Assembly (NCBI RefSeq): GCF_988243305.1
Contig: NZ_OZ547136.1
Reading direction: 5' to 3' (one strand)
DNA: 64,000 nt
Shown here: piece after piece, positions 38,116-39,473 of the stretch
Layout of the letters: every line of letters begins with the position of its first letter
Numbering within the stretch: position 1 is the stretch's first letter
Program-made: the position numbers and the translations under genes
Notes under the pieces: generated by a model
The model's database searches: none
Told to the model about the DNA's origin: nothing
What the model saw: the letters and a program-made list of their open reading frames with translations, nothing else

Positions 38116-38546
38116 TTAATTTGTTTTGTTTACGTAGTCCCTGACCAGGTACGCGAATTCGTGAACGCCAGTTTCACCAAACCAAATCAGGTAACCAGGG
38201 TCGATGTTGTAATAGTAACCAACGACTTTATGCGTTTTTGGGTTATAGAGTGTTACGATATAGTCCCAGCCGCAGGCGTGGGCTTTACAACCGCCACCTT
38301 CTACCCAGGTCGTTCCGTTAATGTTTACAGGATACGCACCACCATCAGGACCATCCATATAGCCGTCTTCCCCAAACATTCCGTTTAACCCAACAGGGTT
38401 TAATGCTTTGTCGATAGCAGCTCTGTAGGTAGCGTCACCTTCGTATAACTCGTACGTTGTTGGACATGCACCAGGCTGGTCAGCCCGGGCTTTTGAGTCG
38501 CATTTAAGTGTCTGATTTACAGTGGCGGCGTTTGTGTCAGGACTTA
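38116..38546 (-). pseudogene. 3' part of a small protein gene interrupted by IS1 (CKAHACG motif, tentatively Ivy-like); 5' 25 nt lie at 39315..39339
   Basis: Reading frame continues across the IS1 (MKFIVKAL / I / SPDTNAATVNQ...CKAHACGWDYIVTLYNPKTH...); RBS AAGGAGAG upstream of ATG 39339. Confidence 0.5.
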
Positions 38547-38561
38547 GGTAATGACTCCAAC

Positions 38562-39065
38562 TTATTGATAGTGTTTTATGTTCAGATAATGCCCGATGAC
38601 TTTGTCATGCAGCTCCACCGATTTTGAGAACGACAGCGACTTCCGTCCCAGCCGTGCCAGGTGCTGCCTCAGATTCAGGTTATGCCGCTCAATTCGCTGC
38701 GTATATCGCTTGCTGATTACGTGCAGCTTTCCCTTCAGGCGGGATTCATACAGCGGCCAGCCATCCGCCATCCATATCACCACGTCAAAGGGTGACAGCA
38801 GGCTCATAAGACGCCCCAGCGTCGCCATAGTGCGTTCACCGAATACGTGCGCAACAACCGTCTTCCGGAGCCTGTCATACGCGTAAAACAGCCAGCGCTG
38901 GCGCGATTTAGCCCCGACATAGCCCCACTGTTCGTCCATTTCCGCGCAGACGATGACGTCACTGCCCGGCTGTATGCGCGAGGTTACCGACTGCGGCCTG
39001 AGTTTTTTAAGTGACGTAAAATCGTGTTGAGGCCAACGCCCATAATGCGGGCTGTTGCCCGGCAT
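38562..39065 (-). CDS. insB: IS1 transposase InsB (made as InsAB' fusion by frameshifting)
   Basis: 167-aa ORF matching IS1 InsB. Confidence 0.9.
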
Positions 39066-39259
39066 CCAACGCCATTCATGGCCATATCAATGATTTTCTG
39101 GTGCGTACCGGGTTGAGAAGCGGTGTAAGTGAACTGCAGTTGCCATGTTTTACGGCAGTGAGAGCAGAGATAGCGCTGATGTCCGGCGGTGCTTTTGCCG
39201 TTACGCACCACCCCGTCAGTAGCTGAACAGGAGGGACAGCTGATAGAAACAGAAGCCAC
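38984..39259 (-). CDS. insA: IS1 protein InsA
   Basis: 91 aa [43 protein letters not shown]... Confidence 0.95.
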
Positions 39260-39473
39260 TGGAGCACTTCAAAAACGCCATCATACACTAAATCAGTAAG
39301 TTGGCAGCATCACCTAAGTGCTTTTACGATGAATTTCATGATAACTCTCCTTATGACATTAATAAATGCGTTAATCTTAAATCTCACCCAGGTAATATAT
39401 ATCTGAAAATATTTTCAACAACACCAGACAGGAAAAACACCACCACAGGCGGTGGCGTTTCTTTGGGGCGTCT

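Follow-up and report, generated by a model that had tools for sequence, protein, structure and literature searches.

Does the IS1 element described here interrupt a single small gene, and why are the bases on its two sides not duplicated? The window, by which we mean the whole stretch of 64,000 nucleotides that was analyzed (contig NZ_OZ547136.1 of assembly GCF_988243305.1), had been described in an earlier note as containing an IS1 that splits one ORF, with 25 nt of the ORF on one side of the element and 431 nt on the other. The element and its parts are located as follows.

38547..39314, minus strand: complete IS1 (IS1A-like), 768 bp, identified by inverted repeat pattern search, comparison with K-12 IS1A and the RefSeq annotation
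38547..38569: right inverted repeat (IRR) of IS1
39292..39314: left inverted repeat (IRL) of IS1
38984..39259, minus strand: insA of IS1, 91 aa, from the ORF list; its translation is the same in form as K-12 InsA
38562..39065, minus strand: insB frame of IS1, 167 aa, from the ORF list; entered via a -1 frameshift at TTAAAAAAC

The element is a complete IS1 of 768 bp, as the earlier note had stated. A search with a degenerate inverted repeat pattern (GGTRATG...CCAACTTAYTGAT) detected two IS1 ends in the 64-kb window, compared with 0.00 expected by chance, and both imperfect terminal repeats of about 23 bp fit the pattern with 0 mismatches. Only 4 nt differ from K-12 IS1A (99.5% identity), insA and the insB frame are open, and the A6C frameshift motif TTAAAAAAC occurs once in the element. 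The features that define the IS1 family, a length of about 768 bp with inverted repeats and insA and insB' frames with an A6C -1 site that yields InsAB', are therefore all present, and RefSeq annotates an IS1A-family transposase with programmed frameshift at the identical locus. The transposase genes lie on the minus strand, co-directional with the flanking genes. What the locus lacks is the 8-9-bp target-site duplication that usually accompanies a simple IS1 insertion: the nine bases on either side, CAGGACTTA and TAAGTGCTT, do not form a direct repeat when compared, in agreement with the earlier reading. Such a duplication defines a simple insertion event, not the IS1 element itself, and at either junction the IS1 end is exact to the base, which is what joining by transposase should produce.

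The identity of the flanks became apparent when the joined flanks were searched against 5,426 complete E. coli genomes. In 9 genomes the flanks are 768 bp apart with IS1 between them; in IS1-free relatives the distance is greater by about 0.9-1.0 kb, and two annotated genes lie between the flanks. We compared four IS1-free relatives, E. coli CE10, C311, LSN03-016011/A and EC11, which align with the window flanks right up to the IS1 ends and have flank-to-flank distances of approximately 1029 bp, 930 bp, 1012 bp and 978 bp, respectively. In all four, the interval between the DUF905 gene and the gene for a patatin-like phospholipase contains two genes, A and B, with their own starts and signal peptides. 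Gene A, which starts with MKFIVKALICLA... (MKFIVKALI...), codes for 180-185 aa with a signal-peptide-like N-terminus, and gene B, which starts with MKRLHTLMLFLVFLFIGVSPDTNAATV... (MKRLHTLM...), codes for 160 aa, again with its own start and signal peptide. The remnants of both genes in the window, and their junctions with IS1, are these.

39315..39352, minus strand: remnant of gene A, namely the ribosome-binding site AAGGAGAG (39345..39352) and the first 25 nt (39315..39339; MKFIVKAL plus 1 nt), recognized from the 5' end in relatives
38116..38546, minus strand: remnant of gene B, a gene for a predicted Ivy-fold periplasmic protein; it begins with the last 2 nt of codon 18 and runs on to the stop, 143 codons in all
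38546..38547: left junction of deletion and IS1; the gene B side is nt 53 of intact gene B alleles
39314..39315: right junction of deletion and IS1; the gene A side is nt 25 of intact gene A alleles

The ATG at 39339 with its ribosome-binding site had been correctly recognized: in the loci L001, L002, L003 and L017, where gene A is 543-558 nt long, its 5' end shows the same 25 nt and ribosome-binding site without a difference. A simple insertion into a single gene for the joined 151-aa protein (MKFIVKALISPDTNAATV...), with a duplication that was lost or atypical, might be suggested by the frame, since 25 and 431 nt do add up to an in-frame 456 nt. However, in all IS1-free relatives that we examined the two pieces belong to two genes, at a distance of 0.93-1.03 kb, no homologue resembles the joined sequence, and the joined N-terminus is devoid of a hydrophobic core, which is present in each of the two parent signal peptides. 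We therefore consider the single-gene reading virtually untenable, and the claim of one split ORF has to be given up. The joined “protein” is a chimera of two different genes, and the agreement of the reading frames on the two sides of IS1 is an accident, with odds of 1 in 3, and without consequence. More generally, an in-frame match across a mobile element is no proof of one split gene, and element-free relatives are needed for comparison. Some BLAST alignments run on into IS1 by 6 nt; we considered microhomology and rejected it as a chance likeness (ATTAGCG versus ATTACC).

The comparison with uninterrupted homologues, which had been proposed as a check, thus shows that 0.93-1.03 kb is indeed missing at the junction. 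The window lacks gene A from nt 26 to its end (518 nt), an intergenic region of 360-444 nt, and nt 1-52 of gene B. Translation from the gene A start codon stops at a TGA two codons into IS1 and gives only MKFIVKALR*. The gene B remnant has neither promoter, ribosome-binding site nor start codon and has lost signal-peptide codons 1-17; the nearest start codon that follows in frame is an ATG at 38379. Because of these losses both genes are inactivated at the window locus, and the gene B remnant is a pseudogene. What is left of it is well preserved, with 96% nucleotide identity to intact alleles and, over the kept part, one amino acid difference from the protein P0001. RefSeq labels it [quoted passage not shown], adjoining IS1. 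Judging from the sequence comparisons, the window IS1 marks a deletion scar of about 1 kb inside an E. coli genomic island, which destroyed two small genes for predicted secreted proteins.

Both window junctions are common to 15 of the 5,426 complete E. coli genomes, which were isolated on several continents and come from human, yak, goose and environmental sources. As complete genomes from such unrelated sources share both junctions, the scar is no assembly artefact. Its chromosomal surroundings are of at least three kinds, with the aidB/ula region in the window, pitB/gsp in cM8a and setC in BR1220, suggesting an old event that has since been moved by island transfer or recombination. Further elements have been added in some genomes: ISEc43, of the IS66 family, is nested within the scar IS1 in three of them (LS4 and FCI23, represented by L005 and L006, and TUM1857), and in two others (32-4 and OW967966; L011 and L012) an IS4 lies between the scar IS1 and the patatin gene. 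The latter two had at first seemed to lack the right junction, a view that we rejected once the IS4 beside IS1 was recognized.

IS1-associated deletions and duplication-less IS copies are textbook knowledge, and Reif and Saedler reportedly described IS1-mediated adjacent deletions in 1975, classically in the gal region. The window element resembles K-12 IS1A and the elements of the classical adjacent deletions in its 768 bp, inverted repeats, insA and insB and frameshift site. In classical adjacent deletions, as in the window, the IS is kept at one deletion border without target duplication (PMC11708052). There is no difference in kind; only the locus and the extent of about 1 kb are particular. 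For E. coli, IS copies without duplication have been documented to arise by adjacent deletion or by recombination between IS copies (PMC11708052). The earlier note had suggested one of these two processes as the reason for the missing duplication, and the absence of 0.93-1.03 kb at the junction bears this out: the cause is an IS1 adjacent deletion or the recombination of two IS1 copies, and the end product is compatible with both.

We lean, with reservations, towards an IS1 adjacent deletion, i.e. one insertion followed by intramolecular transposition. The ancestral island, of the CP4-57/YeeU-CbtA type, would have had genes A and B in the interval bounded by the genes for the patatin-like phospholipase and DUF905. 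IS1 would have inserted into gene A or gene B, and its other end would then have joined a second site about 1 kb off on the same molecule. This joining would have removed gene A from nt 26 on, the intergenic region with the expression signals of gene B, and the first 52 nt of gene B. The model accounts for the missing 9-bp duplication, since each end of IS1 borders on a different native target site. Two intermediates are conceivable. IS1 may first have been in gene B, flanked by the duplication TAAGTCCTG, with gene A intact and the gene B junction reading 5'-TGGTGTAAGTCCTG/GGTGATGCTGCCAAC-3'; or it may first have been in gene A, flanked by AAGCACTTA, with gene B intact and the gene A junction reading 5'-GGAGTCATTACC/AAGCACTTATYTRT-3'. 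The order of the events, and the action of transposase rather than RecA, are what we infer from the end product.

None of the 5,426 complete E. coli genomes contains an intermediate with IS1 at one site, a duplication and no deletion; every genome that shares one window junction shares the other too. As no intermediate was found, adjacent deletion by one IS cannot be distinguished from recombination of two IS1 copies. There is also no IS1-free genome with the exact window haplotype on both sides (the left side is matched at 96.2% at best and the right side at 98.8%, and not by one and the same genome), so that the ancestral length of the lost segment is only bracketed.

The alternative with two IS1 copies would place same-orientation elements in gene A after nt 25 and in gene B before nt 53, each with a duplication, and would let RecA recombination delete about 1 kb together with one copy. 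It draws its plausibility from the frequency of IS1 in this interval. In other islands, four other independent same-orientation IS1 insertions have occurred between the patatin gene and DUF932. These copies (L007-L010) also served as a positive control: 4/4 are simple insertions with perfect 8-9-bp duplications (AAGCCCGTG, AAACTTTC, AAAATTTC and CAAATCTG). The one in L007 hit the signal-peptide codons of the Ivy-like gene a few nucleotides from the position homologous to the window gene B junction, and points to a local IS1 hot spot. A further IS1 insertion is visible in protein P0014, and recombination between IS copies is a documented source of missing duplications (PMC11708052). On the other hand, no genome with IS1 copies at both sites was found, and two insertions plus a recombination are needed, versus one insertion and one intramolecular event. 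A test for recombination between IS1 copies of different islands, in which the lineage of the flanks was followed by sliding identity against six relatives, shows a mosaic throughout, and no particular lineage switch at IS1. The two-copy route therefore stays plausible because of the hot spot, including the hit close to the homologous gene B position; on grounds of parsimony we nevertheless rank it as a less credible second behind the adjacent deletion, with other routes unlikely.

One such route is a single-step deletion in which IS1 arrives without staggered transposase cuts, for example by capture at a double-strand break. IS capture has been proposed in the literature for IS that lack duplications at the centers of deletions (IS5 and IS481; PMC11708052). 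Nothing in the window data requires it, and the base-exact IS1 ends fit transposase-mediated joining. We consider this route very improbable; an assembly artefact is excluded by the 15 independent complete assemblies with both junctions. The adjacent deletion remains our preferred reading.

Several other observations were made on IS1 copies in and near the interval. LS4, FCI23 and TUM1857 were considered as a two-IS1 intermediate, with an “IS1B” on the left and an “IS1A” on the right, 3.3 kb apart; they contain a single IS1 split by the nested ISEc43. The L007 copy (NZ_CP069542.1, 2169..2936) is an independent IS1-family element, 91% identical, with the perfect 9-bp duplication AAGCCCGTG, and is inserted in the Ivy-like part of a 225-aa variant of gene B that is described below. 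All five independent copies between the patatin gene and DUF932 (window and L007-L010) are oriented alike: their transposase is read in the direction of the island genes. A second IS1 without duplication is present in cM8a (L013, NZ_CM176589.1, 13745..14512), between a truncated gene for a pitB-like phosphate transporter and a truncated gspM. It represents another IS1-bordered deletion, 7 kb from the island; the window has one IS1 only. Read outward from the ends of the window IS1 (38538..38546 and 39315..39323), the flanks TAAGTCCTG and TAAGTGCTT match at 7/9 positions, the first 5 being identical, and the joint minus IS1 would form a 12/14 palindrome, with a chance probability of about 1e-3 that was calculated post hoc. 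In the IS1-free relatives, genes B and A contain these two outward 9-mers as native sequence, so that they do not represent a duplication. ACTTA is present within both IS1 inverted repeats too, and no such motif is found at the other nearby IS1 targets.

What did the deletion destroy? For gene B, a CKAHACG motif (CKAHACG-WDY-IVTLY in the remnant) had suggested a likeness to Ivy lysozyme inhibitors. The suggestion does not stand at the level of curated families: gene B scores 16.8-17.1 bits against Pfam PF08816 (Ivy), below the gathering score of 21, and 20.3-20.5 bits against the NCBIfam Ivy equivalog NF007443, which has a cut-off of 180. Being below both curated cut-offs, gene B is no Ivy orthologue. 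The likeness does hold at the level of fold and superfamily, and profile homology to Ivy is found transitively. A word-indexed search with the gene B protein returned E. coli and Shigella relatives only. The subfamily profile A2, run against 1.84 billion representatives, recovered 58 proteins, with intermediates at E-values down to 8e-22; the distant matches are signal-peptide proteins with CExHNCG, CKPHAC or CQPHNC loops. In the widened alignment A3, 24 of the 29 members match Pfam Ivy (best E-value 7.6e-12), and the A3 profile matches the Ivy structures 1GPQ/1XS0 at 4.8e-13 and 1UUZ/4PS6 at about 1e-9, with the Cys loop aligned. The widening with distant homologues was necessary, since the narrow E. 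coli profile A2 on its own did not match Ivy among PDB sequences and gave a spurious mannanase only (E 0.012). Direct alignment of A2 with K-12 Ivy in hhalign is weak (probability 33.5%, E 4.4e-4) and places CKAHACG on CKPHDCG.

Structure prediction points in the same direction. The AF2 model of the closest intact gene B allele is confident (pLDDT 89.1, pTM 0.81) and agrees with the Ivy fold, in which helices are packed on a five-stranded antiparallel sheet. In a Foldseek search of the PDB, the top 8 matches to this model, the only significant ones, are all Ivy, with probability 1.00 and target TM-scores of 0.64-0.73, and the next match has an E-value of 0.77. On the strength of the profiles and the model, gene B encodes a divergent paralogue with Ivy fold, and is not ivy itself. 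The lack of a clear signal peptide had been held against the likeness to Ivy. This objection falls, because the Sec signal peptide is absent from the window gene B as a result of the deletion of codons 1-17; intact gene B alleles begin with MKRLHTLMLFLVFLFIGVSPDTNA/A, where the signal peptide was read by inspection.

The likeness to Ivy (YkfE, the periplasmic inhibitor of vertebrate C-type lysozyme; PF08816; 1GPQ, 1XS0, 1UUZ, 4PS6) thus extends to the predicted fold, to the signal peptide of intact alleles, and to a disulfide-bridged loop at the same alignment position, in which the window allele keeps Cys, Lys, His, Cys and Gly. The protruding disulfide loop of Ivy bears the inhibitory His. 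Its motif CKPHDC is conserved in Ivy (PMC3660660; see also PMC5526577 for statements on loop conservation). The window loop C-K-A-H-A-C retains the Cys pair, Lys and His, but Pro and Asp have both been replaced by Ala. The loops of sister alleles read CKANAC, CKSNAC or CKSDAC, so that His is found in the window-type allele only, and most alleles have Asn or Asp. Gene B also differs from Ivy in being only about 20% identical, in having an extra N-terminal Cys pair (C33 and C45), and in its location, which is on mobile islands and not at the ivy locus; the window copy, moreover, is a truncated pseudogene.

Pseudomonas aeruginosa IvyP2 is likewise a divergent Ivy-family paralogue with an altered loop, a likeness by family, not by direct sequence comparison with gene B. 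IvyP2 did not inhibit lysozyme in vitro (PMC5526577), and a passage in PMC10139938, citing Clarke et al. 2010, describes it as an inhibitor of the lytic transglycosylase MltB. By analogy, such Ivy paralogues may not inhibit lysozyme, yet may be able to inhibit a lytic transglycosylase. It is tempting, if speculative and in our estimate rather unlikely, to see in the four-cysteine island subfamily (loop C-K-[AS]-[HND]-[AT]-C-G-W) a mobile inhibitor of a peptidoglycan-cleaving enzyme other than lysozyme, with a variable loop residue that tracks the target and with the gene A product as a possible partner. A lytic transglycosylase, a phage endolysin or a secreted muramidase toxin could be the target in that case. 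The idea concerns the subfamily and not the window locus, where the copy is dead and its function moot. Among the distant relatives, some Ivy-like domains are fused to other modules: P0071 has a C-terminal caspase domain (Peptidase_C14, E 2e-41), and P0037, P0038 and P0078 have a common Cys-containing C-terminal extension of about 150 aa.

Gene A has no family match in Pfam, NCBIfam or PADLOC, and its homologues are a handful of E. coli proteins. Its AF2 model (pLDDT 62) has no significant fold match. By its sequence, gene A codes for a protein of about 180 aa that is predicted to be secreted, having a signal peptide. Decay of gene A has also taken place in other lineages, by a stop codon in EC11, by an IS1 insertion in an ST131 strain, and elsewhere by an in-frame internal deletion that led to an annotated 225-aa “fusion” with gene B. 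In this “hypothetical protein” (WP_001362823.1; L008 1108..1785; P0006, P0007, P0012 and P0013), a gene A homologue contributes its first ~65 codons, and these are fused in frame to the full gene B, which retains its own Met and signal peptide; the fusion is probably a deletion remnant. It has consequences for annotation. In IS1-free genomes, PGAP flags intact 160-aa gene B ORFs with “missing N-terminus” because its reference is the 225-aa protein, itself a gene A remnant plus gene B, and we therefore rejected the flag as a sign of true truncation. That gene B and its neighbor have been struck repeatedly by IS1 and other decay suggests that they are dispensable in many lineages.

Everything at the window locus is of a known kind, and the public annotation already has IS1 beside a truncated Ivy-family pseudogene (RefSeq). 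The value of the analysis lies mainly in the correct annotation of the locus. Beyond this, the profile and model comparisons suggest that genomic islands of E. coli carry a divergent Ivy-fold paralogue.

As to the chromosomal setting, three tandem tRNA-Gly(GCC) genes at 1926..2345, which are glyVXY-like, place the window in the glyV-aidB-ula region of the Escherichia chromosome. None of the 5,426 complete genomes covers positions 29000..41000 at 80% or more, so the exact combination of chromosomal site and island is absent from this set. Positions 33000..47000 are a fine-scale mosaic of segments, each closest to a different E. coli island, and the part from 34.5 to 44 kb is ~100% identical to strain BR1220. 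The neighboring cluster, on the minus strand at 39474..45901, codes for the patatin-like phospholipase, an RdcB-like protein and a dynamin that resembles CrfC/RdcA but scores 560 bits where the equivalog cut-off is 1146; a small GTPase and a hypothetical protein of 305 aa complete it. The cluster is an island-borne paralogue of the rdcA-rdcB pair plus a phospholipase, for which PADLOC reports weak matches to LeoBC/LeoA only.
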